DNA from: Escherichia phage vB_EcoM-12474III
Length of the DNA stretch: 33,807 nt
Direction: 5' to 3' (one strand)
Sequence record: NC_049457.1
In this document: positions 1 through 33,807 of the stretch, in pieces
Position numbering within the stretch: the stretch's first letter is position 1
Layout: each line of letters opens with the position of its first letter
Made by a program: the position numbers and the translations under genes
Notes under the pieces: model-generated
Databases searched by the model: none
Told to the model about the DNA's origin: nothing
Seen by the model: the letters and a program-made list of their open reading frames with translations, nothing else

Positions 1-127
1 GGGGAAATACTTGTCCGCCAGTAGCTGACGCCCCACAATCACCACAAGGTCAGGGTCTTCCTGATACCACGGCTCAATCAGGTTGTTGGTCGCATCCATC
101 ACCAGTGCGTCAAGGCTGGCATAATCA
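1..127. repeat. Terminal redundancy: 1-127 is identical to 33681-33807 (circular-permutation overlap)
   Basis: Read directly: both copies begin ggggaaatacttgtccgccagtagctgacg and end caaggctggcataatca; the capsid ORF reads seamlessly across the junction. Confidence 0.95.
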
Positions 128-741
128 CCGCCCTTACCCACGCGGATGACCTCAGATGTGGTGTGCCCTTCCTCGTCAGTGACCTTGCTCATCACGCGCG
201 CCGGTGCTTCATTGCGGTATTTCTGCAGCCAGCCGACCGCCACATCCTGCAGCATCGGATTACTGCTGCGGTCAGAGGTTTCGGCACGCTTCACGCCGTT
301 AAAACCGGCCATGATGAAATCAAGGGACTGGCGTTTGATAATGGCGTTACGGATACGGAGCTGGAAATCCTGATAACGCGCCCACAGGTCCAGCGTTTTG
401 TAGCGGATATAAAAATCGAAGTTAATCTGGTCGCATTCGTACTTGTTTGACGCCAGCTTCGAGAAGTCCTTCGGCTGACGCTCGGTGCCACCGGCGGTGT
501 CGGTGGTGCTGGCGATGGAGCCGGTGACACCAATACCAATTTTTTCCCCTTTCATTTCGCTGACCGGCACAATGTTGATGCGGGTCAGAAAATCAGAGGA
601 CTCCTGCATGGTGTTCATCAGGGTCTGAGTGACCGACGGTTCAACGGTGAATTTTTTCGACACATCACCGGCGTCGATGCCGTTCAGTTCGGCAACACGG
701 GACAGGTAGGCATTAAATTTAAAGCGGGTTTCCTGGCGCAT
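1..741 (-). CDS. N: Major capsid protein gpN, N-terminal part (ATG at 741..739; ORF runs off the window start and continues at the window end)
   Basis: Manual translation from 741 downward gives MRQETRFKFNAYLSRVAELNGIDAGDVSKKF..., matching my recollection of P2 gpN; the combined length with the 3' part is 357 aa. Confidence 0.9.
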   Translation of the reverse strand, partial: MRQETRFKFNAYLSRVAELNGIDAGDVSKKFTVEPSVTQTLMNTMQESSDFLTRINIVPVSEMKGEKIGIGVTGSIASTTDTAGGTERQPKDFSKLASNKYECDQINFDFYIRYKTLDLWARYQDFQLRIRNAIIKRQSLDFIMAGFNGVKRAETSDRSSNPMLQDVAVGWLQKYRNEAPARVMSKVTDEEGHTTSEVIRVGKGGDYASLDALVMDATNNLIEPWYQEDPDLVVIVGRQLLADKYFP

Positions 742-799
742 AGTTTTTCCTGAAATTAAGGGTTAATCGTGAAGGTTTTCCCGGACTGACTGACGCCGG

Positions 800-1654
800 T
801 CAGCAGTTCGTCATCAGGGCGTCACCGCCACCACCGGTGGCCTTGCTGCGGCGCTGCTGGGTCAGACTTTCGGTGTTGTCGAGACTGTTTTTCAGGCGGG
901 TGAATGCCTGGCTGGTTTCATCCGCCCTGTCAGTCACCTCCTGCTTAAGTGCGGAAAAGGCGGTTTCCATCTCAGCGAGGCGCTGCTCAGTGGCGCTCAG
1001 TTTTTCCTGCACATGTTCAGCAACAGCGGTCACCGCTTCATGCACGTCATTCAGACGGGCGTCATCGCTGGCCTGTTTGCGGCCAAAAATGGATTTCACC
1101 TTTTCGGTCAGGGCGGTGAACACGGTTTCAGGCAGGTCTTCAAATTCCAGCTCAACGGGCGTTGCCACTGAAATAAGGTTCTCAGGGCTTAATTTGAAGC
1201 GGTTCAGGGGGTTGTGTTTTGCCGTGCGGCAGAATTCCAGGTATTCCGTACCGAGGCTTGCCGGGTCATCGGTGACGGCCAGCCCCACCAGATAACATTT
1301 GCCGGTGTTGGCAAAGTTCGGCTGAATTTCCATTGAGGTATAGACCTTCTGCGCGGCCTTGTTCATCGCGATAAGGTCATCGGTCGGGGTGATTTTCGCA
1401 AACAGCGCCCATTTGCCTTTCAGCGCCGAATCATCGTCAATCTTTTCGGCCTTCAGTTCGGCCACATCGCCATAACGCTTAAAAATACCGTCAGGCAGGA
1501 TGCCGCGCAGATGTTCCAGGTTAATGCGGCAACCATAGACTCGCGGGTCAAAGGTTTCGGCCATTTCCTGAATATCCTGCGCACTGATGACACGCCCGTC
1601 ACAGGTGTCACCTTCAACGCCGATACGAAAGAATTTTGAGACTTTTTTTGCCAT
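800..1654 (-). CDS. O: Capsid scaffolding protein gpO
   Basis: ORF-track protein from MAKKVSKFFRIGVEGDTCDGRVI... is 284 aa from the ATG at 1654, the same length and start as P2 gpO as I recall it. Confidence 0.9.
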   Translation of the reverse strand: MAKKVSKFFRIGVEGDTCDGRVISAQDIQEMAETFDPRVYGCRINLEHLRGILPDGIFKRYGDVAELKAEKIDDDSALKGKWALFAKITPTDDLIAMNKAAQKVYTSMEIQPNFANTGKCYLVGLAVTDDPASLGTEYLEFCRTAKHNPLNRFKLSPENLISVATPVELEFEDLPETVFTALTEKVKSIFGRKQASDDARLNDVHEAVTAVAEHVQEKLSATEQRLAEMETAFSALKQEVTDRADETSQAFTRLKNSLDNTESLTQQRRSKATGGGGDALMTNC

Positions 1655-1827
1655 TGTCAGGAGTCCTGAATAGTGATTAGAGGAGTCACATGTCGGCATC
1701 AGTTTCCCGACGATGCGCATCCTCCGCCATCAGTCCCGGATGGCTTATCACTGACACAACAGCACCTTAGCGAATCGCGGGACGCGACTCAGTAGCCTTG
1801 CCGTGTATTCATCACGGCGAGGTATTC

Positions 1828-4803: not shown

Positions 4804-4822
4804 GTGCTTTCCCGCCTCGCCC
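4804..4822. other. cos: cos cohesive-end site (19 nt)
   Basis: Minus strand reads GGGCGAGGCGGGAAAGCAC, near-identical to the P2 cohesive end as I recall it (GGCGAGGCGGGGAAAGCAC); it lies about 170 bp beyond the Q stop, as in P2. Confidence 0.7.
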
Positions 4823-5008: not shown

Positions 5009-6127
5009 ATGACAGAAAGCCTTGATTACATCGACCTCAATAAACTTGAGCTTGATACAAAAAATCCACGTCTTCCTGAAGGTGTTGAACGTACCCCAGA
5101 AGCAATGCTAAATCATATAGCTCTAACAACCTCTATTGAAGACTTGATGAATGCAATCGCAGAAAATGGATTTTTTCCTGGCGAGCCTCTTATTGCGGTT
5201 AAAGAGGGAGATAAGTACACCGTTGTGGAAGGCAACCGTCGCTTAACGGCAGTTAAACTTATTCATAACCCATATGAGTGCGACAGACCCAGCTCCCGGA
5301 TGATAGAAATCGCCGAAAGCGCTAAAGATAAACTAGGTACACTAGAAAAATTACCAGTGATCGTTAGAGATACCAGAGCTGAAATTTTACCTTATTTGGG
5401 TTTCAGACATATCACTGGTGTCAAACAATGGGAACCTCTATCGAAGGCTCGTTATATCGAGCAACTTTTTGGGCTCACCTCCCCAAACTCACCGACTAAT
5501 GATCGATATCATCAGGTTGCTCGTGCAATTGGTAGCAGAAAAGATCATATCAAGAGAAATCTAGATGCTTTAGCCGTTTATAAAGTAATGGAGAGCAATA
5601 ACTTTTATGATATTGATGGATTAGATGAAGAATCGATCAAGTTTTCAATTTTATCTACAGCCTTAGCTGACGAGAAAATTGGATTGTTTGTTGGCGTCTC
5701 AGAAAAAGACGAATATGGTGATATTACATCCAATGATGTAATAATTCACCCACATCATATAAATAGAGAAAATACCAGAGAACTTACACTATGGCTTTAT
5801 AAAAAGGATGATTCCGGGAAAACAAAGGTTGGAGAGTCCCGAAATTTACGCCTATTATCTTCTGTTATTGATAACCCCAAGGCTTTAACGTCCTTTAGAA
5901 ACGGGGCTGACCTTAAGGTTGCGTATCAGTTAACTGAAGACTTAAAACAAGATTTCATGACGTTACTTTATAAAGCTGAATCTGCATTAATTGAAGCGGC
6001 TGGAATTGTTGCAACCATTGATTACAATCCTGAAGCATTGGAAGTTGCAAGACGCCTAAGTCAAAATGTCAAACTTATTGGTAATACAATTAAAGCCAAA
6101 AAGGTTTCTGACGATGAAGATTTTTAA
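5009..6127 (+). CDS. ParB/Srx-fold (ParB N-terminal nuclease-like) domain protein, cargo gene
   Basis: N-terminus carries ParB-type motifs DTKNPR (aa 16-21) and VVEGNRRLTAV (aa 72-82, the GxRR box); ATG at 5009 follows a GAG-rich RBS; AT-rich relative to the core; overlaps the start of the next gene. Confidence 0.6.
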   Translation: MTESLDYIDLNKLELDTKNPRLPEGVERTPEAMLNHIALTTSIEDLMNAIAENGFFPGEPLIAVKEGDKYTVVEGNRRLTAVKLIHNPYECDRPSSRMIEIAESAKDKLGTLEKLPVIVRDTRAEILPYLGFRHITGVKQWEPLSKARYIEQLFGLTSPNSPTNDRYHQVARAIGSRKDHIKRNLDALAVYKVMESNNFYDIDGLDEESIKFSILSTALADEKIGLFVGVSEKDEYGDITSNDVIIHPHHINRENTRELTLWLYKKDDSGKTKVGESRNLRLLSSVIDNPKALTSFRNGADLKVAYQLTEDLKQDFMTLLYKAESALIEAAGIVATIDYNPEALEVARRLSQNVKLIGNTIKAKKVSDDEDF

Positions 6128-7106
6128 AATCGGAGACATTCATCCTAGTGTTCCTCATCTTTTTGCAGACCTTGCAGAACTTGCTACGGTTATAAATTAT
6201 TCTGGTCGTTATGATCTACATAAAAATGACCTCATAACAATAAGAACTCAAAGTAACACAAGTGTGGATGATATTGATCAAGAATATCAAGAAGATGAAA
6301 ATGAAGGCTGCGATGCTGAACGCAATGACCGTTTAGAAAGACAAGTTGAAGATGTCTGGACGCAACTCGATTTTAGACAAAATTTTCTCAAGGATATTTA
6401 TCCATTTATTATTAATGGTGACTTTATTTCATTGAAAGAAAACCTCACTGAGATACAAAGAATATATATTTTCTTACTCGCATGCTCGAGGTTACGTTCT
6501 TTCACAAAGGCTAGGCAAGGAATAATACAGTTTTGGGCAAAAAATTTTGCTGTCGTAAGTAAATTTTGTGCAACAGCACTACTCCCAGCACACTCAACTG
6601 TACGAGTATTTGACGCAAACTCAGATGACAGGCGAAAATATTATGGTACTGATTTAAGAAAAGCCTTGAAAAGGCTAGGAAAAGACTTAGCTGTTCCTTA
6701 TATTAATGAGCAAGAGTGCGAAAGAGCTGATCCGAGAGGTGATGGTGGTTTTGATATAGTTGCAACTATAGAATTTGAAGATAAATTAAGTAGTAACTTT
6801 GCCTTTTTAGGTCAATGTGGAGCCCAAGAAAGAGATTGGCCCAAAAAAACACTTGAAGCCCACTCATTGAAACTACGAACATATTTTCAAGTGCATTTTG
6901 ACATACCAACTCTAATGTTTACCCCCGTATTCTATCGAAACTCAGATGGTCAATGGGTAGACAATAGCCCTTGCGCTGGAGTATTGATCATTGACAGAGC
7001 AAGGATATTACAGCTTTTAAAAAAGACAAACCATTGCCCTAAAATAGTTTCAGAACAATGGTTTCTTGATTTCGAACAAATTATCAATGATCTTAAGGTC
7101 GAATAA
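6114..7106 (+). CDS. Hypothetical protein with a possible PD-(D/E)xK nuclease motif; operon partner of the ParB-fold gene
   Basis: ATG at 6114 overlaps the upstream gene end (6127); protein contains RGDGGFDIVATIEFEDK (aa 208-224), reminiscent of the Mrr-type GDGGxD ... ExK catalytic signature; AT-rich. Confidence 0.5.
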   Translation: MKIFKIGDIHPSVPHLFADLAELATVINYSGRYDLHKNDLITIRTQSNTSVDDIDQEYQEDENEGCDAERNDRLERQVEDVWTQLDFRQNFLKDIYPFIINGDFISLKENLTEIQRIYIFLLACSRLRSFTKARQGIIQFWAKNFAVVSKFCATALLPAHSTVRVFDANSDDRRKYYGTDLRKALKRLGKDLAVPYINEQECERADPRGDGGFDIVATIEFEDKLSSNFAFLGQCGAQERDWPKKTLEAHSLKLRTYFQVHFDIPTLMFTPVFYRNSDGQWVDNSPCAGVLIIDRARILQLLKKTNHCPKIVSEQWFLDFEQIINDLKVE

Positions 7107-8045
7107 CTAATCCCAAATATCTGGAAGAGATTTAGCAACCGCCTCAAATAAAGGAGGCGGAACAGCATTGCCAACTACTGTATACTTCATATTAATAGAA
7201 GCCCGTTCAGTTTCTGGAAAAATTAGGTCTCCAAAACCCTGTAAAATAGCGGCCTCTCGATAACTAAACCTACGAGCTGGTGCATCCGAAGTAAATTGCC
7301 ACTTATCTGGACCCAATTTTTCTAATGTTGGACTTATTGGATGTAGAGGCATATGTCTAGGATTTGCAACAATTGTTTTAGATATCTGATCCCAATCTTG
7401 CCGACGGTTGCGCGATAGATAATACCAATGAAAATCGGCATCATAAAACTCACCAATAGGCCAAACAGGCATATGACCAATAGCATCACGAATTGTTGAA
7501 TATGGTTTCAAGCCATCACCATGTGTTGGTTTTGGAAATTTGTATGTAATACCATAGTCTTTTCGTATTCCTACGATAAAGATTCTCTTCCTATCTTGTG
7601 ATACGCCATAGTGGGACGCATTCAGAATTTGCGAGCTTACTGTATAACCTGCTTCTTCGAAAACTTTGAATTGATCCTTTAACAAATGTTCAAAGTTACG
7701 CCTTACCATTCCAGAAACATTCTCTACAATGAATGCTTTTGGCTTAATCTTTCTCAAAGCACGAGCAAACTCTAAATATAGAGTATTAATCTTTCTATCT
7801 GCCTTCCTTGCTCCACCCTGGCTAAATCCCTGGCAAGGATAGCATCCGATAAGCAATTCGGCAGAAGGGAACGATTGGAGTCCTGAAATATCGCCCAATA
7901 TGTAATCAGTTTCAGGATGGTTTTCTAAGTAAACGTCCCTTGCATAAGGCAAAATATCGTTTGCCATCAGCACATTGAACCCTGCTCTCAAAACTCCCGC
8001 ATCAGAACCACCACATCCAGAAAAAAGTGAAACTACAGTTGGCAT
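7107..8045 (-). CDS. DNA (cytosine-5)-methyltransferase
   Basis: Canonical C5-MTase motifs: FSGCGG (motif I, aa 8-13), PCQGFS (motif IV, aa 70-75), ENV (motif VI, aa 108-110), a QDRKR motif (VIII-like) and a C-terminal GNAVPPPL; convergent with, and abutting, the 6114..7106 gene. Confidence 0.88.
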   Translation of the reverse strand: MPTVVSLFSGCGGSDAGVLRAGFNVLMANDILPYARDVYLENHPETDYILGDISGLQSFPSAELLIGCYPCQGFSQGGARKADRKINTLYLEFARALRKIKPKAFIVENVSGMVRRNFEHLLKDQFKVFEEAGYTVSSQILNASHYGVSQDRKRIFIVGIRKDYGITYKFPKPTHGDGLKPYSTIRDAIGHMPVWPIGEFYDADFHWYYLSRNRRQDWDQISKTIVANPRHMPLHPISPTLEKLGPDKWQFTSDAPARRFSYREAAILQGFGDLIFPETERASINMKYTVVGNAVPPPLFEAVAKSLPDIWD

Positions 8046-8542: not shown

Positions 8543-8982
8543 CCGTTTTGCTGTGCACGCTCCATCTGTTCATCTGAATAGTTCCATGCTCCATCCGTGG
8601 CAACCATTGCCCCGCCAGACACCCCCGTCTCTGGTTCATACATAACAGCAAGGCCGAGCTGATGCATAATTTCATGATTAATTCTGAATACCAGGCCACG
8701 CTCACTAAGTTCTTTCCAGTTCACAATCTCATATGCGCTTGTATTAAGCAGCTCAATACTTAGCAAGACATAATCTTCCAGCCAGTCTGACAGGTCAGTA
8801 ACATCTGTTATCCGGGCTTCAACCTTTCGCCCCGTAAACACACCCTGTACCCATTCATGCAAAATCAGCGTATCCCCGCGCTCATAATTACGGTCATTTT
8901 TCCGAAACTCTGCACGTTTCTTTCCTTCCAGCACAAGGTCGAAATATTTTGCGTGCAGCTTTACCTCGTGAATTTTTGCCAT
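8530..8982 (-). CDS. ASCH/DUF3850-like protein with a C-terminal HExxH motif
   Basis: MAKIHEVKLHAKYFDLVLEGKKRAEFRKNDRNYERGDTLILHEW... resembles PUA-like ASCH/DUF3850 domains; C-terminal part contains HEIMH followed by YEPE; ATG at 8982 overlaps the end of A. Confidence 0.6.
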   Translation of the reverse strand: MAKIHEVKLHAKYFDLVLEGKKRAEFRKNDRNYERGDTLILHEWVQGVFTGRKVEARITDVTDLSDWLEDYVLLSIELLNTSAYEIVNWKELSERGLVFRINHEIMHQLGLAVMYEPETGVSGGAMVATDGAWNYSDEQMERAQQNGWLG

Positions 8983-11753: not shown

Positions 11754-11755
11754 TA

Positions 11756-13010: not shown

Positions 13011-13012
13011 AA

Positions 13013-23307: not shown

Positions 23308-23835
23308 TTACTGCGGCATTTCCGGCCATTCAGGATTTGCAGGATCCACACGACTGACCAGAACACTGTAGCGTTCCCATGCTTCCAGTCGGCTGCGTTC
23401 CTCCTCTGTTGCCATATTCAGCCTGACAGCGCGCTCCAGCAGCAAAATCACGGATTCAGCTTCGGAAAGTAAAGTTGCCTTTTGTGATTCTGCCAGTTGA
23501 TGCTGTTCGTCTGCCGTATAAATCCGCTTAATCACGGCACCATCCTTAAACATCCATTTACCTGAGTCATCAGCACGTCGGTTGGCGGTAATATCAGGAA
23601 CCTCGACAACGCTAAAACCTTCAGGGTTAAGCGTTGAAGCATCTCTGGTGATGCCGACAATTATATTATTCTCGTCGTAAACAATCTTTATCGTGTCTTC
23701 CTGAAAATTACTTACTTCCTCATACCAGTTTTTTCCGTCTTCAGACCATAACCAGACAACATCAAAATTTTTTGTCAGTTGATATTGGGCAACAGTTTTG
23801 GGATTACCCGCAGTAATATTTTTTAAATGCTGCAT
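23308..23835 (-). CDS. G: Tail fiber assembly protein gpG
   Basis: 175-aa ORF, matching P2 gpG length and position downstream of H. Confidence 0.85.
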
Positions 23836-23838
23836 AAA

Positions 23839-25767
23839 TTACACCTGTGCGACGTTATACCATGTGCCATTAATGTATTTTTGTATTGGTCTGAATACTG
23901 CGGGGTCATCACCATCGACTTCACCGACAATACCAAGCCCTGTAATTACATGGCCTGATTTTTCATACATCACACCTTTTTGCATAGTCTGAACAACACG
24001 TGTGCCCAGGCGAATATCTCGTACATAGCGAGAATCCGATTCAGCTTTGGTATATGCACCAACATCTCCCGCAGAGGGTTTGCGGGTTGTGGTGTAAAAC
24101 TCTGACCAGTTAGCCTCAAATCCATAACCATCACGTGCTGAACGATAAAAAATACCGCCGTTCTTATAATTCACACGGAACTGTACGGCAGGGCAACTCC
24201 CCGCATTCATATTGAAGTGGAGGATTAATGTCGATGCACCGCTGATATCTGCATCATAAACACCGCTATTCCAGTTCCAGCCAACAGCTTTATCATTTGC
24301 AACCCTGCTTCCTGTTTGCCCTAAAGCAAATGCAGGCTGCTGGTTTTTCGTGTTGTAGTCTCGTCGCCAGCCGGGGGCATAAGCATCACCATGATTAATA
24401 TAAGTGAATTGAGCGTTAGTGGTGCCGCCTCCGGTAGAAGTGCTTGGTGTTGTTACACGGATGGTCATGGCACCTTTATTACCCATAACCTCAATAACGC
24501 AACCTGCAAGATGAATAGTTCCACAGCCAGTATCGGTAATAATTTTATTATTGCCGTATGACCATGAACATTTGCACATCCAGTACGGATGATTAAATGC
24601 ACCACGGGAATCCAGCCATTCAATAAACTGAGCGGTTGTCCAGTTTCCGGCTTCAGTGCTCAAAGCGCCGCTATAAGCACGACAGGCACCGATATTTTTC
24701 GTGAAGGTATCCTTTCCCGGAATATCCGCACCGTTCTGATCTTTCTGAAGACGTTTTTCAGCATTGTCATAGGCAGACTTCACTGCTTTTGGTGTTGCGG
24801 CCAGCGTTTCAGAATCACTGTTGGCGGCGCTACTGAGCTGAACAAGACCTTTCCGCGCCGTGGTGGCGTCCTGTGCAGTGTATTTCCCGTTAGCAAGGTC
24901 ATACGCGGCCTTTACCGCCTTTGGCGTTGCCGCAAGCGTTTCAGAATCGCTGTTGGTGACGCTACTGAGCTGGACAAGACCTTTTCGCGCTGTGGTGGCG
25001 TCCTGTGCGGTATATTTCCCGTTAGCAAGGTCATATGCTGCTTTTACCGCTTTTGGTGTTGCGGCAAGCGTTTCAGACGTGCTGTTGGTGGCACTACTGA
25101 GCTGGACAAGACCTTTTCGCGCTGTGGTAGCGTCCTGTGCGGTATATTTCCCGTTAGCCAGGTCATATGCGGCCTTAACCGCTTTCGGCGTTGCAGCCAG
25201 TGTTTCAGACGTGCTGTTGGTCGCACTGCTTAACTGAGTAAAACCTTTTGCGGTCAGCGAGGCGTCCGGGTGACGTCGTGACTGTTCATGTTCTGCAATT
25301 TTGTCATCAACGTAATCCTGCGTCGCCATCACCGTTGTGGTGTCAATGGTCAGCTCCACTGAGGTCACACTGCTGACGATGATGACCATGCGACAGGTCT
25401 GCGAACGCCCTGAGCCTTCGGCAAGAGCTGGCTTATAACTTTCGGCCATGTTCGCCACGGCAATTAATGTTCCCGCATCATCGTACAGGCCAAGCTCACG
25501 CATCCAGAAACCGCCCACCTCCGGCGGAATAACCAGCTCTGCGATAATATAATTACTGTTTCGTTTGTCCTGGCTGATTTTGTTCAGCGCATGTCGCCAG
25601 ACTTCATGGATAAGCCCGGTCTGTCCGGCATCCGGGACAGGCAATTTACCACCGCCATCCCCGACGGCCATCGTGGTAATGTTGACCTTCCGCCCTCCCG
25701 GCGCGGTTGCCGCTGCCAGCTTTGCTGCACCGGCAGTGGTGATAACGGTTCTGAATTTTGTGCTCAT
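23839..25767 (-). CDS. H: Tail fiber protein gpH
   Basis: 642-aa ORF; N-terminus MSTKFRTVITTAGAAKLAAATAPGGRKVNITTMAVGDGGG... is P2 H-like; contains internal 44-aa tandem repeats. Confidence 0.9.
   Translation of the reverse strand: MSTKFRTVITTAGAAKLAAATAPGGRKVNITTMAVGDGGGKLPVPDAGQTGLIHEVWRHALNKISQDKRNSNYIIAELVIPPEVGGFWMRELGLYDDAGTLIAVANMAESYKPALAEGSGRSQTCRMVIIVSSVTSVELTIDTTTVMATQDYVDDKIAEHEQSRRHPDASLTAKGFTQLSSATNSTSETLAATPKAVKAAYDLANGKYTAQDATTARKGLVQLSSATNSTSETLAATPKAVKAAYDLANGKYTAQDATTARKGLVQLSSVTNSDSETLAATPKAVKAAYDLANGKYTAQDATTARKGLVQLSSAANSDSETLAATPKAVKSAYDNAEKRLQKDQNGADIPGKDTFTKNIGACRAYSGALSTEAGNWTTAQFIEWLDSRGAFNHPYWMCKCSWSYGNNKIITDTGCGTIHLAGCVIEVMGNKGAMTIRVTTPSTSTGGGTTNAQFTYINHGDAYAPGWRRDYNTKNQQPAFALGQTGSRVANDKAVGWNWNSGVYDADISGASTLILHFNMNAGSCPAVQFRVNYKNGGIFYRSARDGYGFEANWSEFYTTTRKPSAGDVGAYTKAESDSRYVRDIRLGTRVVQTMQKGVMYEKSGHVITGLGIVGEVDGDDPAVFRPIQKYINGTWYNVAQV
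24760..25250. repeat. Tandem 132-bp coding repeat (about 3.7 copies) inside tail fiber gene H
   Basis: gttagcaagg / gttagccagg landmarks recur at 24889, 25021 and 25153 (period 132); the protein repeats KGLVQLSSATNSTSETLAATPKAVKAAYDLANGKYTAQDATTAR. Confidence 0.9.
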
Positions 25768-25777
25768 TATTCCTCAC

Positions 25778-26308
25778 TTATCCGGGGTAAACCGTAATTA
25801 CATCGCCGTCATAAGCCACACCACCGGCGAACAGGTAGCCGGGAATGTCCCGGGTAATGTTCAGGCCAATAAGGTGGCGGCTTGCAGGTTTGGCATCAGC
25901 AATCAGCCGTTCCATTTCCTGATACATTGCCTCTGTGATGCCACTTTCCAGTACACCAATATCAAGCCGGAAGGTGCCCGGCGGGTCACTGGTTTCCCAC
26001 CACTCCGTCACGTTGATGAGATAGCCGAGCGGCTCCACCACACGCCGGATTGCACCTATAGTGCCTTTATGACAGTGGATGAAATAGGCATCGCGGATAA
26101 CGGCGCGTTTTGTCGCTTCCGGCCACTTTTCATCCCACCTGTCGACCGAAAACGCCCACGCCAGCCACGGCAGCAGATTTGCCGGACAGGTGTCCGGGTT
26201 CCACAGCTCACGAATACTGACCGGCGTTTTTTCAATTTCCGCACAGGCTTTTGCGGCGGCGACCTCAAGCGGTGATGAGCCGGTCGGCAGCAGTCGCGAA
26301 TCACTCAT
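25778..26308 (-). CDS. I: Baseplate protein gpI
   Basis: 176-aa ORF, P2 gpI length; overlaps the J stop. Confidence 0.88.
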   Translation of the reverse strand: MSDSRLLPTGSSPLEVAAAKACAEIEKTPVSIRELWNPDTCPANLLPWLAWAFSVDRWDEKWPEATKRAVIRDAYFIHCHKGTIGAIRRVVEPLGYLINVTEWWETSDPPGTFRLDIGVLESGITEAMYQEMERLIADAKPASRHLIGLNITRDIPGYLFAGGVAYDGDVITVYPG

Positions 26309-27209
26309 CCGAGCCTCCGGTCACGACGCGGTATTCGGTACAGAAAGACGCCTGCGTACTGTTGAGCACGATGTCGGCCAGTGGTGCTGCCAGTTCGACA
26401 CGCTGCACACCTTCCACATGCAAAGCGGCATAAATGGCAGACAGACGGATGTCGCGCCCCAGCCGGTGCTGTGCCGTGATATACGCTTCCAGTTTTTTCA
26501 CGGCGGCAGCGCGGATGGGTTCGCTTTCGGGACCAGGGTAAAGGTAAAGCGTGGCGTTTATCTGGTATTCAACGATGGCGGCAGACTGCACGGTCACGCG
26601 GTCGGCCACCGGCCTGACGTCCTCACCATTAAGGGCGTTACGCACCACGGCCAGCAGGTCTTCGGATGCAACACCGTTATTTTCACGTGACAGCACAGAG
26701 ATGGTGACGCAGGCCGGAGACGGACTGGTGACAGAGATATCCGCGACACGCCCGTCGGCACTGCGACCATGATACTGATAGGCACCCACCGACCCGGCGA
26801 CGCTTAAGCCCTCAAACGCCTGCTGAATACGCAGACGATAATCGGTGTCAGACTCCATCACTGCCGGTGTCGGCGGAATGGTCGAATCATCTGCCGGGGT
26901 GATAGTCAGGCGCGTGGTGTTGTAATTGGCACCAATCACATCAAGGTCATTACCGGCTGCACAGGCCAGCATCACCGCCCGTGCAGCCTCATTCACACGC
27001 TGACGCCAGATAAGCTCACGATAAGCATTTTCCTCCAGCAGTTTGACGAGAGGCTCGGATTCCAGCGTCAGGGTACGGGCGACCGCCTCCTGCTGGTCTT
27101 CCGGGTAAAGGGAAATCAGTGTCGCCTTGCGTTCGGTGAGAATGGTTTCAAAGTCCAGCTCCTCGACCACATCCGGTGCGGGTAGCTGGTTCAGGTCGAT
27201 AATCGGCAT
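26301..27209 (-). CDS. J: Baseplate protein gpJ
   Basis: 302-aa ORF, P2 gpJ length. Confidence 0.88.
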   Translation of the reverse strand: MPIIDLNQLPAPDVVEELDFETILTERKATLISLYPEDQQEAVARTLTLESEPLVKLLEENAYRELIWRQRVNEAARAVMLACAAGNDLDVIGANYNTTRLTITPADDSTIPPTPAVMESDTDYRLRIQQAFEGLSVAGSVGAYQYHGRSADGRVADISVTSPSPACVTISVLSRENNGVASEDLLAVVRNALNGEDVRPVADRVTVQSAAIVEYQINATLYLYPGPESEPIRAAAVKKLEAYITAQHRLGRDIRLSAIYAALHVEGVQRVELAAPLADIVLNSTQASFCTEYRVVTGGSDE

Positions 27210-27213
27210 GGTT

Positions 27214-27561
27214 TCAACTCACAGGGATGGTTAACGAAAGTGGCTGGCCGGTGTCGTTGTGCTGGCCGGTCAACGTGACCGTCATTCGCCCGTCAAAGCT
27301 GCGCGCCGTGGTGACGGATGACAGGGTGACGCGGGGTTCCCATTTCAGCACTGCCATGTAACAGGCGACCTTAATCTGCAACTCAAGCGCCGGGGTCTGC
27401 GGCTGGTCAATCATTGATGCCAGCAACGAGCCGTAATCACGACGCATCACCCGTGAGCCGACCGGCGTGCGCAGGATATCGCCGATACTCTGGCTGATAT
27501 GCTCAAGGTCAGTGACAGTCAGGCCATTACTGCGATTCATTCCGAGATAACGCGCTGTCAT
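27214..27561 (-). CDS. W: Baseplate protein gpW
   Basis: 115-aa ORF, P2 gpW length; ATGA overlap with V. Confidence 0.88.
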   Translation of the reverse strand: MTARYLGMNRSNGLTVTDLEHISQSIGDILRTPVGSRVMRRDYGSLLASMIDQPQTPALELQIKVACYMAVLKWEPRVTLSSVTTARSFDGRMTVTLTGQHNDTGQPLSLTIPVS

Positions 27562-28193
27562 AAAGGACTCCCGGTTGTGCCGCCGCTGTCGCCGGGGTGT
27601 TTGTGGGTATGCAGTACCTTACCGTTTGATGAGAGTTCACCGCCGGTGTGTTCAATGTTGCCGCGCATCGTCCCGCCCTTCTGTACTTCCAGCGTGCCGG
27701 TAATCAGCCTGTTGGTGCAGACCACCTCCGGTGTGTCCAGGGTGACGCGGGTTGATGCTTTCACCATGACCACCGGCACCGTGGCAGTAACAGAATCAGA
27801 AGCCGTCACGCTGGCCGTTTTAATTCCGCTTGCCGTGAGTGCACTGGTTTCGGGTTCATATTCAATCACCGCCCCGTCAGGGAAACGGATATGCAGGGCA
27901 TCCGCCGACGCAGACGGCGCGGGGTTATCGCCGGAATAAATCCCCGGCAGAACGAACGCCGTGTCGAGTTCACCGCCCACGGCCAGAATCAGCACCTGCT
28001 CCCCCACGGAAGGTGCCCACCATGTGCGCGAACGACCGGCACGATGGGTCAGCCACTGAAGCCAGTCAGTGCACATGCCGCCGGTCTGCACACGGCAGCG
28101 ACCGGCGTTAAGGTCGGTTTCGACGATAATGCCGGTGCGAATCATGTTGCGCAGTGCGCGCGCGAGTTCCTGAATATTTGCGAGAGTGTTCAT
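27558..28193 (-). CDS. V: Baseplate spike protein gpV
   Basis: MNTLANIQELARALRNMIRTGIIVETDLNAGRCRVQTGG... from the ATG at 28193; 211 aa, as in P2 gpV. Confidence 0.9.
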   Translation of the reverse strand: MNTLANIQELARALRNMIRTGIIVETDLNAGRCRVQTGGMCTDWLQWLTHRAGRSRTWWAPSVGEQVLILAVGGELDTAFVLPGIYSGDNPAPSASADALHIRFPDGAVIEYEPETSALTASGIKTASVTASDSVTATVPVVMVKASTRVTLDTPEVVCTNRLITGTLEVQKGGTMRGNIEHTGGELSSNGKVLHTHKHPGDSGGTTGSPL

Positions 28194-28276: not shown

Positions 28277-29062
28277 ATGGTCAGCTATAATGTGACTAAT
28301 GTGTGGGGGCTAATCGTTTTTTTCCTTTGTAGCTTTGCAGTATTAGCATTTTTTAGCTTTGGTAAAAGTAACCTTATGAGGCTTATTGCACATTATTTCA
28401 ATTTTGGATATTCAGACAAAAAATTAAAAAGACTTGACCGCGAGTGGCGCGACATTCAACTATTTAAAATAATTAACGGAATCAATGTATCAGGCATTGA
28501 AAATGTGAGAATGATACAGCAGGGACTGATTGATGGAAAACTAAAAACATCGTATTTTTTCCTTACTCGCATCTGGGGTGACATAACAAAACCACCACAC
28601 ATAATTAAAACAATAATTGTAATTCTGGCCAGTATTTTTTACATTCTCCTCGCATGTTATATACACAACAAACAATCCGCTATAGTAAGAGATGCCATAG
28701 GCATACCATATAAAAATATGATGTACTATGTTTATAGTGACAAAGTTCTTTTATCCTTCAACAATAAAACAGTTGAATTCAATAAAACTTATAGCCTTGC
28801 CGATTGCAAGAGGCTACGAAACGTATTTATAAAAGACACACTTCCTGAGATCGCCTGCAATAAGCTCTTACAGCTAAACGAGGAGGACTCCGAATGGTTA
28901 AGTCAGGAGATTAAAGATAATAACAGCCAAAAAAAAGCATTATTAATAATATCCCTCATCTATTTCATTTCAGGTCTGGTTATATTCCTGTCATATACAA
29001 AATTCCTTTACGCCAATAAGAAGGTTGTAGAATACAAAGCATCAAATAAAAATCACTCATAA
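28277..29062 (+). CDS. Predicted membrane protein (261 aa), AT-rich cargo between V and S
   Basis: ATG at 28277 with an AGGAG RBS 6 nt upstream; three hydrophobic helix-like segments (aa about 10-30, 115-135, 225-245); strongly AT-rich; strand opposite to the flanking late genes. Confidence 0.75.
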   Translation: MVSYNVTNVWGLIVFFLCSFAVLAFFSFGKSNLMRLIAHYFNFGYSDKKLKRLDREWRDIQLFKIINGINVSGIENVRMIQQGLIDGKLKTSYFFLTRIWGDITKPPHIIKTIIVILASIFYILLACYIHNKQSAIVRDAIGIPYKNMMYYVYSDKVLLSFNNKTVEFNKTYSLADCKRLRNVFIKDTLPEIACNKLLQLNEEDSEWLSQEIKDNNSQKKALLIISLIYFISGLVIFLSYTKFLYANKKVVEYKASNKNHS

Positions 29063-29133: not shown

Positions 29134-29586
29134 CTAACGCTCAAGGTGAGCCAGGATAATCTCTTCAATCATCTGCACATCCTCACCGGTAAAGCCGAGC
29201 AGAGGACGCGCCGGATAATCAATTTTCTTACCGTTTTTCCGGGTTTCTTCCGACAGACCGAACTGATGCACACTGGCGATTTTCGGCGACTTCCCGCCGT
29301 AAAATTCCATTGATGCCTGTTCCGGGCTGGCGCGGATATGCAAAAAACGACTGGTGATAAGTTTCGCAAACATTTTTCGCTTAACACGACCGGTCTTTTT
29401 TCTGGCGCTCTGCTGCTGGCGTGGCGCGTAGGGTGTGCCGTCCGGGGCTTTCTGTGCCATCACCCGACGCTGCTGACTCTGACGCAGACGTTTCGCCAGT
29501 TCGGCGCTCAGTCGCCGACGCCCTGACGGTGACAGCGATTCAATAAGTCCCGCCAGCCGGTCTTCAAAACGCTTAAACTCATTCAT
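29134..29586 (-). CDS. S: Tail completion protein gpS
   Basis: 150-aa ORF, P2 gpS length and position. Confidence 0.88.
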   Translation of the reverse strand: MNEFKRFEDRLAGLIESLSPSGRRRLSAELAKRLRQSQQRRVMAQKAPDGTPYAPRQQQSARKKTGRVKRKMFAKLITSRFLHIRASPEQASMEFYGGKSPKIASVHQFGLSEETRKNGKKIDYPARPLLGFTGEDVQMIEEIILAHLER

Positions 29587-30046
29587 CCCACTTGCTCACC
29601 AGTTCGCCATTGATATAAAGCTCCATCGGGCGGGTGGCCGGCTCCGGCGGCGTGGGTTCCGGGATATTCTTCACATGCAGCGCGCCGTCCACCTCACTGA
29701 CCAGCGTGCGCTCGGTCAGCATCAGGCTGATGCTGATATCAAAGCTGCTGTCATTGTTGATGTCTGCATAAAACGTGAAGCCCTTTTTCTGACCTTCGTC
29801 AGTGGTCATGATGTCGGGCTGATTTTCCCGCAGCCACGCCAGCACCGGCACGATGAGCAGGTCAAAATCACCGGTAAAGTCGGTCACAATGACATTGAGC
29901 GTGTAACGCTTTTCGAATGACAGCGACGTCGCCAGTGTGGAGGCAATACTCCCGTTATCCACGAATATCCGCAGCATATCGGGGTTAGTTTTCAGCACCG
30001 TGACGGCATCAGTCAGCGCCCTGCGCAGGCTGTCGGGTTTGAGCAT
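29579..30046 (-). CDS. R: Tail completion protein gpR
   Basis: 155-aa ORF, P2 gpR length and position. Confidence 0.88.
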   Translation of the reverse strand: MLKPDSLRRALTDAVTVLKTNPDMLRIFVDNGSIASTLATSLSFEKRYTLNVIVTDFTGDFDLLIVPVLAWLRENQPDIMTTDEGQKKGFTFYADINNDSSFDISISLMLTERTLVSEVDGALHVKNIPEPTPPEPATRPMELYINGELVSKWDE

Positions 30047-30299
30047 CGTTTTCGTCCTGACAGTGTTTAATCATTTTTACCTGGCTGGCACAGCGCGCCA
30101 GCGCGTTCTCAAGCTGCCGGATATCGGCACTTAAATCACCGTTCGTCTGCGGGTCGCTGCCCGGCATCGGGCAAAGACTCACTTTCGGGCAGGCGTTGTG
30201 GACAATCACTGGCATCGGTGCAGGCGGGGCGCTGGTGCAACCGGCGCACAGCATCAGGCAGGTCAGCGCCGTACCAGCGGCGAAAATCTTCGTTTTCAT
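30009..30299 (-). CDS. lysC: LysC, outer-membrane lipoprotein spanin (Rz1-like), embedded out of frame in lysB and overlapping R
   Basis: 96-aa ORF with signal peptide and lipobox (LMLCAGC); Pro-rich mature region; overlaps the 3' end of lysB in another frame. Confidence 0.75.
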   Translation of the reverse strand: MKTKIFAAGTALTCLMLCAGCTSAPPAPMPVIVHNACPKVSLCPMPGSDPQTNGDLSADIRQLENALARCASQVKMIKHCQDENDAQTRQPAQGAD

Positions 30300-30579
30300 T
30301 CAGTAACCTCGTGATGGTTTTCTCGCGCTGTGCTTCACGTTTCGCGGCGTTCTCCAGCTCCTGACGCAGTGCCACCTGCGCCAGCTCGTTTTTGTCTGCC
30401 CTGGTAAGGGCAACATGAAGCTGGTTTTTCAGCATGGTGATGGTCGTCTGCTGTTCACTGGCGACGTTGTTCGCCCTGTCCAGCGAGGCGCGCAGGCTGG
30501 CGTTTTCATGCTTCGCCAGAAACAGCCCCGCCACCGCCAGCGATAACAACACGACCAGCACAATCATCAGCTTTGACAT
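30136..30579 (-). CDS. lysB: LysB, inner-membrane spanin (Rz-like)
   Basis: N-terminal transmembrane segment MSKLMIVLVVLLSLAVAGLFLA followed by a coiled-coil-like region; conserved position. Confidence 0.85.
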   Translation of the reverse strand: MSKLMIVLVVLLSLAVAGLFLAKHENASLRASLDRANNVASEQQTTITMLKNQLHVALTRADKNELAQVALRQELENAAKREAQREKTITRLLNENEDFRRWYGADLPDAVRRLHQRPACTDASDCPQRLPESESLPDAGQRPADER

Positions 30580-30992
30580 GGTTCCCGCCCCTCAAAACGC
30601 TGACGGCAGGCTTTACGTATCAGCCGGAAGAACACCGACGCCACAAGATAAATCAGCGCGGTAAAAATCCACCCGGCAGCGACCAGCGCGATAAACGTCG
30701 CCACCATCACCACCAGAGCCGCCGCCCGTCTGCGCCACCGCACCGGCTGCAAAAACAGCGACGTGACAATCTTCACGGCCAGCGATTCCGGCGGCAGCTC
30801 CCGCCCGTAGCGTTCCAGCACATACTCAGTGGCATACACGCCGACACCACCGGCAACCACACAGATAACCGTCGCCAGAATCGCCCAGGTGGCGACAAAA
30901 CTGACGGCCACGCTCTGCGGGTAAATCAGGGACAGTGCCAGCATCAGCGCCAGCGACACGTTCAGCATCAGTGAAAGGGATAATTTCTTCAT
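30567..30992 (-). CDS. lysA: LysA (membrane protein, lysis timing)
   Basis: 141-aa multi-hydrophobic-segment ORF between K and lysB, as in P2. Confidence 0.85.
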   Translation of the reverse strand: MKKLSLSLMLNVSLALMLALSLIYPQSVAVSFVATWAILATVICVVAGGVGVYATEYVLERYGRELPPESLAVKIVTSLFLQPVRWRRRAAALVVMVATFIALVAAGWIFTALIYLVASVFFRLIRKACRQRFEGREPCQS

Positions 30993-31006
30993 GGTGTTTA
31001 CTCCGT

Positions 31007-31504
31007 TTAAGCCGGTACGCCGCCAGCGGTACGCCAGACGGTGACCAGTTTTTCCAGTGAATGCTCACGCTGACCGTAACCGGCACCCGGCAGGGACGCC
31101 CAGATATTGCGACAGCGTGAAATGGCGCGCTCAATGCGTCCCGCCCGGATGTCATCCAGCGCACCGCGTTCGCGGATCAACTGAATGGCAAGTCTGTCCT
31201 GTGACAACGGACTGAAATCCGGCAGGGCAAGCTGTTTGCGGTAATGCGGCCAGAACAGGTAAAGCTGCTGATAGCGACCGGAGGCCGTGGATTTTTCACC
31301 GCGACGGTTAAACACCTTCGCCGGTCGGCCATGTGCGAACGGGTGGTCACTGTAGTCGGTGAAAATTTCCGGCTTCCCGTCCAGTCCGGTGACTATCACG
31401 TCATAGCCCCGGTTTTTCGTCAGCGGATGGTTTGCCGTCCCTTCGGACACGGCCAGCATGTCGAGAAAGGCGGCGATATTCTGATGCGTGTTAATAACCG
31501 GCAT
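31007..31504 (-). CDS. K: Endolysin gpK
   Basis: 165-aa ORF MPVINTHQNIAAFLDMLAVSEGTANHPLTKNRGYDV..., matching P2 gpK. Confidence 0.9.
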   Translation of the reverse strand: MPVINTHQNIAAFLDMLAVSEGTANHPLTKNRGYDVIVTGLDGKPEIFTDYSDHPFAHGRPAKVFNRRGEKSTASGRYQQLYLFWPHYRKQLALPDFSPLSQDRLAIQLIRERGALDDIRAGRIERAISRCRNIWASLPGAGYGQREHSLEKLVTVWRTAGGVPA

Positions 31505-31785
31505 TACGGTTTCCCCCTGCCCTTAAAGCGGCGCTGAATGGCAATCTCAATCACCTGATAACCGGCGATACCCAGCATGGAGCCGATACCGCACACCGCA
31601 GGCAGTGACAGGTCAGGAAACTGCACCAGAACAACACCGGCAACCATCGAGACAAAACCACCGAGCAACATGCGCCCGATAAACAGACGCGGGGTGATGG
31701 GTTCACCACCGGCAAGCACCTTGCCGACAACAATCAGCACCCCAATCATGAAAAGCGACAGGACGCTTTTTTCTTCTGCTGTCAT
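31504..31785 (-). CDS. Y: Holin gpY
   Basis: 93-aa ORF with hydrophobic segments and a charged C-terminus; P2 gpY length. Confidence 0.88.
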   Translation of the reverse strand: MTAEEKSVLSLFMIGVLIVVGKVLAGGEPITPRLFIGRMLLGGFVSMVAGVVLVQFPDLSLPAVCGIGSMLGIAGYQVIEIAIQRRFKGRGKP

Positions 31786-31788
31786 GCG

Positions 31789-31992
31789 TTACTCCCACAG
31801 ATTGACAGTTTCAGCCACGGGCGCGGTCTGAACGTCGGGCAGTTCGACGGCGGTGCCGTGTGGCAGCACCGCACCCAGTTCAGCCAGTCCCGGATTTGCG
31901 GCGAGCACGGTCTCAACCACGCCCTCAGTGCGCCCGTAATACCGGACACAAATGGCGTCGAGCGTGTCGCCCTGTAGCGCAAAGGTCTTCAT
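31789..31992 (-). CDS. X: Tail protein gpX
   Basis: MKTFALQGDTLDAICVRYYGRTEGVVETVLAANPGLAELG... (67 aa); the ATG at 31992 overlaps the L stop (ATGA). Confidence 0.85.
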   Translation of the reverse strand: MKTFALQGDTLDAICVRYYGRTEGVVETVLAANPGLAELGAVLPHGTAVELPDVQTAPVAETVNLWE

Positions 31993-32501
31993 CAGATTTG
32001 ACTCACGATGCAGCGCGGCTTGTCCTGGATACGCGCCACCGCCCAGCGCATATCCCGCCACAGTTCATCAATGGTGCTGTCAATGCTGTCAGCCTTCTTG
32101 TCGCCTTTCGCACTGGCATCCACACCGCGATAACGCTCATAAAGCGACGCGGTCGCCATCGCACACACGGCGCGCTCGTAGTAAAAAACTTTGATACTTT
32201 CACCGTCGATGTCGTCCGCCGGAACGTCCGCCAGACGCGTAAAACCGGCGGCAATTTTCTGTTCGCGGTACTCGTACAGCTCCGCATTTGTTTCCGCCAT
32301 GCCTGACTTGATGGCCTCACGCAGACGGGCGGGGGCGACGGTCTGCTCAAGGCGCATACGTTCCCGGACGCGCTTCGGGTCGATATCGGGAAAAAAGAAC
32401 GTGTTTTTAATCACCGGCTCGTCGCCTGCCGGTTGCGGGATGACCACCGTACCCTCACCGGACACGGGAGCCTCCTTTCGCGGAATAATCAACGTCATCA
32501 T
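31992..32501 (-). CDS. L: Head completion protein gpL
   Basis: MMTLIIPRKEAPVSGEGTVVIPQPAGDEP... 169 aa from the ATG at 32501, matching P2 gpL. Confidence 0.85.
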   Translation of the reverse strand: MMTLIIPRKEAPVSGEGTVVIPQPAGDEPVIKNTFFFPDIDPKRVRERMRLEQTVAPARLREAIKSGMAETNAELYEYREQKIAAGFTRLADVPADDIDGESIKVFYYERAVCAMATASLYERYRGVDASAKGDKKADSIDSTIDELWRDMRWAVARIQDKPRCIVSQI

Positions 32502-32600
32502 GACTACCTCTGAAAAGTCGGGCGGTGGACGCCGGTACAGTGTCAGGTGATTCACCCTCACTGACCGGCGTGCCGCCCTGGCGCGGGGCGCATTCGGTTG

Positions 32601-33344
32601 TTAACTGGCTTTCTTTTTCGGGCGTCCACGTTTTGCCGGTGTCACGCTCCGGATCTTACGCGGGGCGCGGGTGGCCGCTTTTGGCTGCGGCTCCGGCTTC
32701 GGTTTCAGTTCCCGCTCCAGTCGTTCAATCTCTTTTTTGACGCCTGCCTGACAGTCGAGCTGTGTCGCACGTTGCAGGTGCGCCAGCGCACCGGCGGCAT
32801 CACCACCGTCACGCAGAAACAGACCGGTGATTTTGTGCAGCTTTGCGCGCACTTCATCAGGCATGTCAGCCGTGGCGGTCAGTTCAAGGGTCTCCGTCAG
32901 CAGGCGGATATCCACAGATTCACCGGCAGCGTGAGCGCGCATGGCCGCGAGTGCGACCTCCTCGGTGAACATGTACGGCGGGGTGCGGCGGTGTTTACCC
33001 GGCATGGTCAGACCGTACTTCAGGGCATAACGGGCAATCTCCAGCGCACCGGCAATATCGCCGGTATCCAGACGCCACAGCATGACCGTCATCAGAATGT
33101 CATCCTGTGCACCTTTGCCCTGCTCCAGCACGCCGTTCACCCACGGCAACCAGAACGGCAGCAGTTCGCGTTTTTTCGCGGCCTTCAGCTCTTTTGAATA
33201 AATCGCTTTCAGTGTGCGCTGGTCTGCGGCGAGCTTAACCAGCATCTGCTCATAGACAGTTGCATGTCGCAGCGGGGCGGCTTCCCGCTGCGCGGTCATC
33301 GCTGCCGAGACCCGCATCATGTGGCGCTGTGCGGGACTCGTCAT
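32601..33344 (-). CDS. M: Terminase endonuclease (small) subunit gpM
   Basis: 247-aa ORF MTSPAQRHMMRVSAAMTAQREAAPLRHATVYEQ..., matching P2 gpM. Confidence 0.9.
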   Translation of the reverse strand: MTSPAQRHMMRVSAAMTAQREAAPLRHATVYEQMLVKLAADQRTLKAIYSKELKAAKKRELLPFWLPWVNGVLEQGKGAQDDILMTVMLWRLDTGDIAGALEIARYALKYGLTMPGKHRRTPPYMFTEEVALAAMRAHAAGESVDIRLLTETLELTATADMPDEVRAKLHKITGLFLRDGGDAAGALAHLQRATQLDCQAGVKKEIERLERELKPKPEPQPKAATRAPRKIRSVTPAKRGRPKKKAS

Positions 33345-33347
33345 CGG

Positions 33348-33807
33348 TTACGCTCCCGGCTCTGCGGTCGCCTTAGCCGGTGTGGAGAAATCACCGACCT
33401 TAATTTTTTCCACCAGGCAACCGGCGGCGTAGTCTTCCACCACGTAATCAATGTTCATTGACTCGTAGTTCTCCACGCGGTCGAGTTTCGGGTTTTCCTC
33501 AATCACGCGGCGATGGCTGTCATCCATGTAGTAGATGGACAGGTTTTCCAGCTTCGTGATGAGCATCGCATCCGCCGGGAAGTACGGGACGCGTACCGCT
33601 GGCAGGTTGCCGATGCGTTTCTGGCTGATGATGACGTCAGCGGCCAGCATTTCGCTGTTGTCCTGCTCCTTGTTAACGATGGGGAAATACTTGTCCGCCA
33701 GTAGCTGACGCCCCACAATCACCACAAGGTCAGGGTCTTCCTGATACCACGGCTCAATCAGGTTGTTGGTCGCATCCATCACCAGTGCGTCAAGGCTGGC
33801 ATAATCA
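33348..33807 (-). CDS. N: Major capsid protein gpN, C-terminal part (5' end runs off the window end; continuous with 1..741 on the circular map)
   Basis: ...MDATNNLIEPWYQEDPDLVVIVGRQLLADKYFPIVNKEQDNSEMLAADVII... reads continuously from the 1..741 segment through the 127-bp redundancy. Confidence 0.9.
   Translation of the reverse strand, partial: DYASLDALVMDATNNLIEPWYQEDPDLVVIVGRQLLADKYFPIVNKEQDNSEMLAADVIISQKRIGNLPAVRVPYFPADAMLITKLENLSIYYMDDSHRRVIEENPKLDRVENYESMNIDYVVEDYAAGCLVEKIKVGDFSTPAKATAEPGA

Follow-up and report, generated by a model that had tools for sequence, protein, structure and literature searches.

Complete genome of the P2-like Escherichia phage vB_EcoM-12474III, recovered as a contig with overlapping ends

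A P2 backbone and its closest relatives

P2-type phages package unique-ended linear DNA that is cut at cos. After injection, the DNA circularises by its cohesive ends and replicates from an origin in gene A, and P2 replicates as monomeric circles that also serve as the packaging substrate. The window analysed here, by which we mean the whole 33,807-nt stretch from vB_EcoM-12474III (NC_049457.1), holds the full genome of a P2-like E. coli phage published previously, a correct but ordinary finding. Judged from sequence comparison, it belongs to the genus Peduovirus and combines a P2 backbone with immunity and integration functions of the WΦ type. Except for a one-base difference at cos, it holds no biological surprise, and the main value of the result lies in how other features of the window are read, with no host context.

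Compared with P2 (NC_001895), the window has the same gene order, and its proteins for structure, lysis, replication and late control are mostly 95–100% identical (less conserved are lysA, at 94%, and G and orf81, at 89%). The context of the replication origin (50/50) and the flanks of cos are also conserved. It differs from P2 in int, C and cox (51%, 46% and 43% identical), in its attachment site, in a divergent C-terminal part of H, in carrying other cargo in place of old, tin and fun(Z), and in a cos that is one base shorter. These diverged functions are instead shared with WΦ (NC_005056): Int (325/326), C (97/97) and Cox (90/90) are identical or nearly so, the 47-bp att core is exact, and the attachment site near cpxP is common to both. 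The methyltransferase is 98% identical to that of WΦ, and DNA identity is 96% over window positions 7108–15400. However, the two plus-strand cos-adjacent genes reach only 32% and 25% identity with WΦ gp98 and gp96, and the WΦ genome is shorter (32,684 bp versus 33,680 bp in the window unit). A prophage of E. coli O145 RM9872 at cpxP/fieF (NZ_CP028379) is about 99% identical in DNA along the entire phage, including the cargo genes, and has an identical 47-bp core at both ends. Unlike the window, it is integrated, with int adjoining cpxP and ogr adjoining fieF, and it carries the canonical 19-nt cos.

The closest records are those of vB_EcoM-12474II, IV and V (MK907236, MK907238 and MK907239; species Peduovirus pv12474III), with lengths of 33,688, 33,714 and 33,731 bp. 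They have the same gene content as the window, including all cargo loci, and we found 0 mismatches over 33,666–33,679 bp (about 33.67 kb). Study, sample and assembler are probably also common to them and the window.

Genes were assigned by tblastn with P2 proteins, and ORF intactness was checked for O, P, Q, A, int, ogr, C and cox, plus N, all of which were intact. The essential P2 genes are all present in P2 order: Q P / O N M L X Y K R S V W J I H G / FI FII E T U D ogr / int C cox B A. Matches were full length at 89–100% identity, except for int, C and cox (43–51%) and for H, which matches P2 over its N-terminal 251 residues only. No homologs of fun(Z), tin or old were found in the window with P2 proteins in tblastn; all other P2 genes were present. 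Rfam and tRNA scans found no RNA genes in the window. The genes outside the capsid and integration regions are as follows.

800..1654, minus strand: scaffold gene O, 99.6% identical to P2 gpO, ORF intact
1828–3600, plus strand: large terminase P, 99.7% identical to P2 gpP, ORF intact
3600–4634, plus strand: portal Q, 99.4% identical to P2 gpQ, ORF intact
5009..8045: cargo beside cos at the P2 old/tin position, three genes, GC 0.37–0.40
5009–6127, plus strand: ParB-N/PD-Lambda-5_A-like gene, cos-adjacent cargo
6114–7106, plus strand: gene without an assigned function, cos-adjacent cargo
7107–8045, minus strand: C5 cytosine methyltransferase, cos-adjacent cargo
8961..11267, minus strand: replication gene A, containing the origin, by tblastn, ORF intact
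11257..13285, minus strand: early operon orf83, orf82, orf81, orf80, B, orf78 and cox, by tblastn
15353..21655, minus strand: tail genes D, U, T, E, FII and FI, 97.5–100% identical to P2, full length
21974..23056, plus strand: SMEK-domain protein (Pfam SMEK_N; weak PADLOC match), cargo at the P2 fun(Z) position, GC 0.38
23308..28193, minus strand: tail fibre and baseplate genes G, H, I, J, W and V, by tblastn
28277..29062, plus strand: orf30, non-essential and on the opposite strand, 95% identical to P2 Orf30, GC 0.34
29134..33344, minus strand: S, R, lysC, lysB, lysA, K, Y, X, L and M (small terminase), 94–100% identical to P2, full length

The conserved P2 nick-site context lies at 9384–9433, inside A, with the nick at about 9409. 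Within H, we also observed a 132-nt tandem repeat at 24766–25221. For orf30, Pfam and PADLOC scans gave no family match. The position of the cos-adjacent cargo corresponds to a published P2 hotspot between gpA and gpQ. Among the contigs returned, those encoding an identical 330-aa cargo protein were integrated prophages only. The preliminary description proposed that three cargo loci travel with the virion, and this held, as all three are present in the virion-derived sibling genomes with 0 mismatches. All three of these low-GC loci lie inside the packaged unit, in places where P2 is known to vary.

Attachment site and integration module

The int, attP and ogr sequences are contiguous in the window, together with the neighbouring immunity genes.

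13013–13285, minus strand: cox
13438–13731, plus strand: immunity repressor C
13801–14781, plus strand: tyrosine integrase int (Pfam Int_N, Phage_integrase)
14796..14814, minus strand: int-side attP arm, TGTGGACA twice, 11 bp apart
14897..14943: attP core, 47 bp, with the hairpin CCCCCACATCATGTGGGGG, exact copy in WΦ
14992..15010, minus strand: ogr-side attP arm, one TGTGGACA and one TGTGGACG repeat, 11 bp apart
15054–15272, minus strand: late-gene activator ogr, 72/72 identical to P2 Ogr

Of the 18 copies of the arm repeat in the genome, 4 fall within 421 bp, against an expectation of 0.23, and those on the int side match the published P2-type arm consensus tgTGGaCa. Window positions 14701–14943 match one end of the O145 RM9872 prophage and 14897–15200 match the other, with the 47-bp core in common. 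This core is identical in both prophage junctions at cpxP/fieF and matches 46/47 positions in the empty K-12 site. The published WΦ attachment site, near cpxP at MG1655 position 4104392 (old coordinates), agrees with the window attP. From these comparisons, the int/attP module is classed as WΦ-type, not P2-type. By established P2 biology, the phage can integrate through this WΦ-type integrase, recombining the attP core at 14897–14943 with the same sequence at the cpxP/cpxQ 3' end, upstream of fieF.

Prophages of this phage type are found very often at cpxP. We considered whether the contig represents an integrated prophage or includes host DNA at its flanks. This reading is extremely improbable, and we rejected it because the attP junction refutes it: the window runs from int through attP to ogr, whereas in every prophage copy examined the match stops at the core, with cpxP or fieF following. 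The host-identical stretch in the window is limited to the 47-bp core, and cpxP/fieF sequence beyond it is absent. Two statements of the preliminary description, that the int–attP–ogr segment is uninterrupted and that the window is no prophage and has no host context, are thus upheld, with attP being the exact recombinant of attL and attR. We note one correction to the record: the published "attL/attR" of the 12474 phages is the wrap-around beside cos, while the real attP core is the 47-bp sequence matching the cpxP/cpxQ 3' end.

The terminal overlap and the capsid gene

Comparison of the window ends with each other showed that positions 1–127 match 33681–33807 exactly, and these are the only copies of the 127-mer in the window. 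Collapsing one of them leaves a unit of 33,680 bp.

1..127, no strand: overlap copy 1, inside capsid gene N, same sequence as 33681–33807
33681..33807, no strand: overlap copy 2, redundant, its removal leaves the 33,680-bp unit
1..741, minus strand: 5' part of N (major capsid), start codon at 741, by tblastn with P2 gpN
33348..33680, minus strand: 3' part of N, stop codon at 33348–33350, by tblastn and translation

N spans the junction on the minus strand, running from 741 to 1 and then from 33680 to 33348 (1,074 nt). Translation across the junction gives a product that is identical to MK907236 N and matches P2 gpN at 356/357 residues. When both 127-mers are kept, N is frameshifted, because 127 leaves a remainder of 1 when divided by three, and a stop is reached at codon 248. 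With 250-bp reads, the largest k used by SPAdes is 127. The source study sequenced plaque-purified phage stocks and reported four phages of 33,688–33,807 bp, prepared with Nextera XT, read at 250 bp and assembled with SPAdes 3.13. End overlaps of 127 bp are a documented SPAdes artefact, and the same overlap has been reported in two papers. Since the assembly was made with SPAdes 3.13 and this artefact is documented, the overlap and the permutation are features of the contig, not of virion DNA.

We identify the 127-bp redundancy as the k=127 overlap of SPAdes, not as a biological terminal repeat. We are highly confident that the window is a circularised SPAdes contig of the plaque-purified P2-like phage vB_EcoM-12474III, opened inside N and with its end k-mer doubled. 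The assembly graph would have closed into a circle and been printed opened at an arbitrary point inside N. Its final k-mer (127 bases) would then be repeated at both ends, so that dropping one copy restores 33,680 bp.

The opposing interpretation is a virion genome packaged by the headful, circularly permuted and terminally redundant, with the 127 bp as a genuine direct repeat at its termini. The window ends are indeed exactly redundant, and the same SPAdes overlap has been so interpreted in some papers. However, the 127-mer is single-copy in MK907238, an identical phage record, and the junction closed with one copy is collinear with all three siblings, at 100% identity over 800 nt in these independent linear records. 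Two copies would break the capsid gene, the overlap has the length of the documented artefact, and terminase and portal share over 99% identity with those of P2, a cos-packaging phage. All sibling assemblies end at cos, with no scatter of end positions. A headful-permuted genome was rejected on the absence of the repeat from the siblings, its effect on N and the fixed sibling ends, and we give it almost no credence.

With the contig read as a circularised assembly, several points of the preliminary description stand: an exact 127-bp terminal redundancy, a capsid gene that reads through the junction (intact with one copy), a complete genome of about 33.68 kb with a circular map, and a length near that of P2 (33,593 bp). 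The option of an assembly artefact, which it had left open, proved correct for the overlap. Its term "circularly permuted" fits the assembler's arbitrary opening of the circle but not the virion DNA, which has fixed ends. In practical terms, coordinates wrap inside N, one 127-bp copy is to be removed, and the true genome is 33,680 bp or, if cos is canonical, 33,681 bp.

The cos site and the ends of virion DNA

The unit aligns to the phage records throughout its 33,680 bp except for a few bases at cos. The site lies between Q and the cos-adjacent cargo, where it is expected.

4804..4821, no strand: cos cohesive-end sequence, 18 nt versus the canonical 19 nt (CCC for CCCC)

Searching the window by pattern for the P2 cos 19-mer, with three substitutions allowed at most, gave no match. 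This substitution-only search missed the site because the difference is a deletion, and cos was located by comparison with the P2 record. The window cos, GTGCTTTCCCGCCTCGCC (18 nt), is the reverse complement of P2 cosL/cosR minus one C, and its flanks are conserved with P2. The preliminary description called cos intact; its place and flanks are as expected, but with a length one base short of canonical this statement is only partly confirmed. Every other copy examined, P2 included, has the 19-mer, with one C more.

The virion DNA would be packaged with unique ends cut at cos (4804–4821), and once injected would circularise by its cohesive ends and then replicate from the origin inside gene A. 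The sibling records are linear and open at cos, whereas the window is closed across cos and opened inside N. The sibling virion assemblies begin at window position 4813 or 4818 and run out at 4807 or 4813, inside cos, and their record ends carry Nextera adapter remnants or a wrap-around with 9 nt deleted. Together with the Tn5 9-bp stagger, the positions of the adapter junctions fit neither an 18-nt nor a 19-nt end cleanly. The window junction across cos, one base short of an otherwise universal 19-mer, may be inaccurate.

Alternatively, the 18-nt cos could be a real private allele and not an assembly error, giving 18-nt cohesive ends or shifted nick positions, a possibility that we regard as appreciable but doubtful. 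In its favour, MK907239, from an independent library, ends with GTGCTTTCCCGCCCGCTTC, which is the exact product of a 9-nt slip between two CCCGCC repeats in the 3-C version, not the 4-C version. Against this, P2, the O145 prophage and four prophages with the identical cargo protein all carry the 19-mer, which has at least 120 matches in IMG/VR. The closest E. coli prophages among the matches listed are all one base longer across cos. The 18-nt form had zero exact matches in IMG/VR, GTDB species genomes and JGI metagenomes, and it was absent among the matches listed from complete E. coli genomes. The site also coincides with the scrambled part of the sibling assemblies. If the 18-nt allele were real, and thus viable and plaque-forming, it would be the sole case seen among thousands of P2-like cos sites. 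The P2 terminase would then tolerate a deletion in the cohesive-end sequence, with either 18-nt ends or nicks set by distance, not sequence.

The closure across cos could also mean that the circle is intracellular replicative or excised circular DNA carried into the preparation, not virion DNA. A de Bruijn path at k=127 needs cos-spanning reads, which covalently closed circles would supply, and monomeric circles are the established replication form and packaging substrate of P2. We consider this source unlikely, as the stocks sequenced were plaque-purified and three of the four sibling assemblies are unclosed at cos with end-associated adapter junctions, which is expected if most molecules are linear and terminate at cos. 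Reads that span cos would probably also result from cohesive ends that had annealed, or from overlap-extension between filled-in ends during PCR. We infer that the cos-spanning reads behind the window arose from circles, annealed or replicative, or through PCR overlap between both ends. A further correction concerns the sibling GenBank records, in which adapter sequence is still present.

Genome unit and the 127-bp duplication

The window represents a whole phage genome, circular in map and carrying an intact attP, and not a prophage, as the preliminary description had proposed; single-copy closure and an uninterrupted attP carry this reading, and a single-base difference in cos is the one point left beyond an otherwise routine picture. 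The phage had been published previously. Four such phages (II–V) were obtained from one blood sample, plated on E. coli DSM 12242, and sequenced as 250-bp read pairs from Nextera XT libraries; assembly in SPAdes 3.13 gave genomes "between 33,688 and 33,807 bp" with an ANI of 100% (PMC6834657). We found 0 mismatches over 33,666–33,679 bp between the window and Escherichia phages vB_EcoM-12474II, IV, and V (MK907236, MK907238, and MK907239), whose three records, in order of length, measure 33,688, 33,714, and 33,731 bp.

The window begins and ends with the same 127 bases, with no third copy, which gives a unit of 33,680 bp. As described before, the capsid gene N reads through the junction:

Capsid gene N: start at 741, past the left end, then from 33680 down to the stop at 33348; minus strand; joined through one copy of the 127-mer

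Closed with one copy, N is intact with a length of 1,074 nt, equals its MK907236 counterpart, and matches P2 gpN at 356/357 positions; with both copies retained, it is frameshifted (127 mod 3 = 1) and stops at codon 248. The identical record MK907238 has a single copy of the 127-mer, and an 800-nt query across the single-copy junction, inside N, aligned end to end at 100% to three independent linear phage records. The single copy, the collinear junction in these sibling records, and the broken reading frame rule out a genuine genomic direct repeat. For 250-bp reads, the largest default k in SPAdes is 127, and circular paths are output with an overlap of length k. Such 127-bp end overlaps of SPAdes contigs are documented in two papers, one of which considers them artificial. 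The "terminal redundancy" is therefore a routine assembler signature and the opening point inside N is arbitrary.

Attachment site and integration

Matches to E. coli chromosomal copies were 100% over window positions 13000–14943 and then broke off. In E. coli O145 RM9872 (NZ_CP028379), a P2-like prophage sits between cpxP and fieF; its int-side end corresponds to window 14701–14943 and its ogr-side end to 14897–15200, so that the two matches overlap each other in a shared core.

attP core: 14897–14943, 47 bp, overlap of both O145 prophage ends, identical in both junctions
attP arm repeats: 14796–14814 and 14992–15010, two TGTGGACA on each side of the core

Because chromosomal matches stop at the core and both junctions share it, the window contains an intact WΦ-type attP within an uninterrupted int-attP-ogr segment and no host DNA past the core, in agreement with the stated lack of host context. 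An integrated prophage was rejected, as the window lacks host junctions and the prophage copies examined break at the core into the cpxP/fieF region. Four of the 18 genome copies of TGTGGACA fall within 421 bp (0.23 expected), and these repeats agree with the published P2-type arm consensus.

The window's Int, C, and Cox are nearly or fully identical to those of WΦ (NC_005056; 325/326, 97/97, and 90/90), which contains the same 47-bp core, but only 51%, 46%, and 43% identical to those of P2. With an offset of ~2 kb between K-12 sequence versions taken into account, the published WΦ site lies within the mapped core. That site was given as MG1655 4104392 in an older coordinate system. The empty K-12 site (4106344–4106390; 1345–1391 of the K-12 locus L004) matches the core at 46/47 positions, the one different base lying in a hairpin loop. 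The annotated sRNA cpxQ, the 3'-terminal part of the cpxP transcript, has its own 3' end within this core. On the cpxP strand, the core includes a G+C-rich hairpin and, after it, a T run, an arrangement that resembles the cpxP/cpxQ terminator. Integration would swap the cpxQ end for a phage-borne copy.

The cos site and virion DNA ends

cos: 4804–4821, between Q and the cos-side cargo, at the P2 position
Adapter remnants in sibling GenBank records (e.g., GGCAGCGTCAGATGAGTATAAGAGACAG, CTGTCTCTTATACAAATCTGACGCTGCC): MK907238 1–28 and 33704–33731; MK907236 1–12; MK907239 1–7

All three sibling assemblies start or end inside cos. The window positions of the end and the restart are 4807 and 4813 for MK907238 and 4813 and 4818 for MK907236; MK907239 starts at 4813 and has a 9-nt deletion where it wraps beyond cos. 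Directly next to these cos-internal ends lie Nextera mosaic-end remnants (both ends of MK907238, the starts of MK907236 and MK907239). This pattern is expected if most molecules are linear and, like P2 DNA, end physically at cos. Circular permutation of the virion genome, as in the preliminary description, is thus rejected. PMC6834657 lists CCCGCCCGCTTCATGGGTCGGTTTTAATG as both attL and attR; we reject this 29-mer (window 4820–4848) as an attachment site, since it is the cos-adjacent wrap-around at both MK907239 ends and the true attP core lies at 14897–14943.

An intact cos is supported by the position of the site and by its 30-nt flanks, identical on both sides to the O145 prophage, but not by the length read in the window: GTGCTTTCCCGCCTCGCC (18 nt), whereas P2 (NC_001895), the same O145 prophage, and four further prophages have GTGCTTTCCCCGCCTCGCC (19 nt). 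Among E. coli matches, the closest 20 differ from this stretch only by that one additional base, and all other full-length matches listed are one base longer as well. With 3-nt flanks, the 19-nt form had at least 120 matches in IMG/VR; the 18-nt form had none in IMG/VR, 185,579 species-representative genomes, or JGI metagenomes. This uniqueness, and the location of the difference at scrambled sibling assembly ends, argue for an assembly artifact. However, the aberrant MK907239 end corresponds to a 9-nt slip between two CCCGCC repeats of a three-C cos, which the four-C version does not give, lending modest independent support to three Cs in this stock. We consider it possible, though somewhat doubtful, that the 18-nt form is a real allele of the phage stock.

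Gene content and cargo loci

The window carries all P2 genes except fun(Z), tin, and old, for which no counterpart was found; their order is that of P2, with the strand reversed against the standard P2 map. Three loci outside the P2 core have a GC content of 0.34–0.40 (genome, 0.51):

5009–8045: cos-side cargo, with a ParB-N/PD-Lambda-5_A-like gene, a gene with no family match (6114–7106), and a C5 cytosine methyltransferase
21974–23056: SMEK-domain protein at the fun(Z) position (Pfam SMEK_N, E = 1.6e-19; GC 0.38)
28277–29062: orf30, 95% identical to P2 Orf30

These loci travel with the virion, as previously proposed: they fall inside the cos-to-cos unit, and the siblings, whose sequences come from virions, carry them with 0 mismatches. 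The cos-side cargo occupies a published P2 defense hotspot, the gpA-gpQ interval. Its methyltransferase is 98% identical to that of WΦ, but its first two genes share no more than 32% and 25% identity with WΦ gp98 and gp96, and the first of them resembles only the N-terminal ~150 residues of PD-Lambda-5_A defense proteins. The cargo may be a restriction-like or defense module paired with the methylase. The exact 330-aa protein encoded at 6114–7106 occurs in 4,835 blocks of a public assembly collection, and the four places shown (L128–L131) are all P2-like prophages with int adjoining cpxP, so this phage type with its cargo appears very widespread in E. coli. The SMEK-domain protein weakly matches the N-terminus of the PADLOC Aga_REase-PNTD model.

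At 8297–8982, the orf91 homolog is longer than in P2 (150 versus 109 aa; DUF3850/ASCH and DUF7415); the ORF after it, of 77 aa, matches no family. In the tail-fiber gene H, which P2 gpH matches only over its N-terminal 251 residues, a 132-nt (44-codon) unit is repeated in tandem 3.5 times at 24766–25221, with 88% identity.
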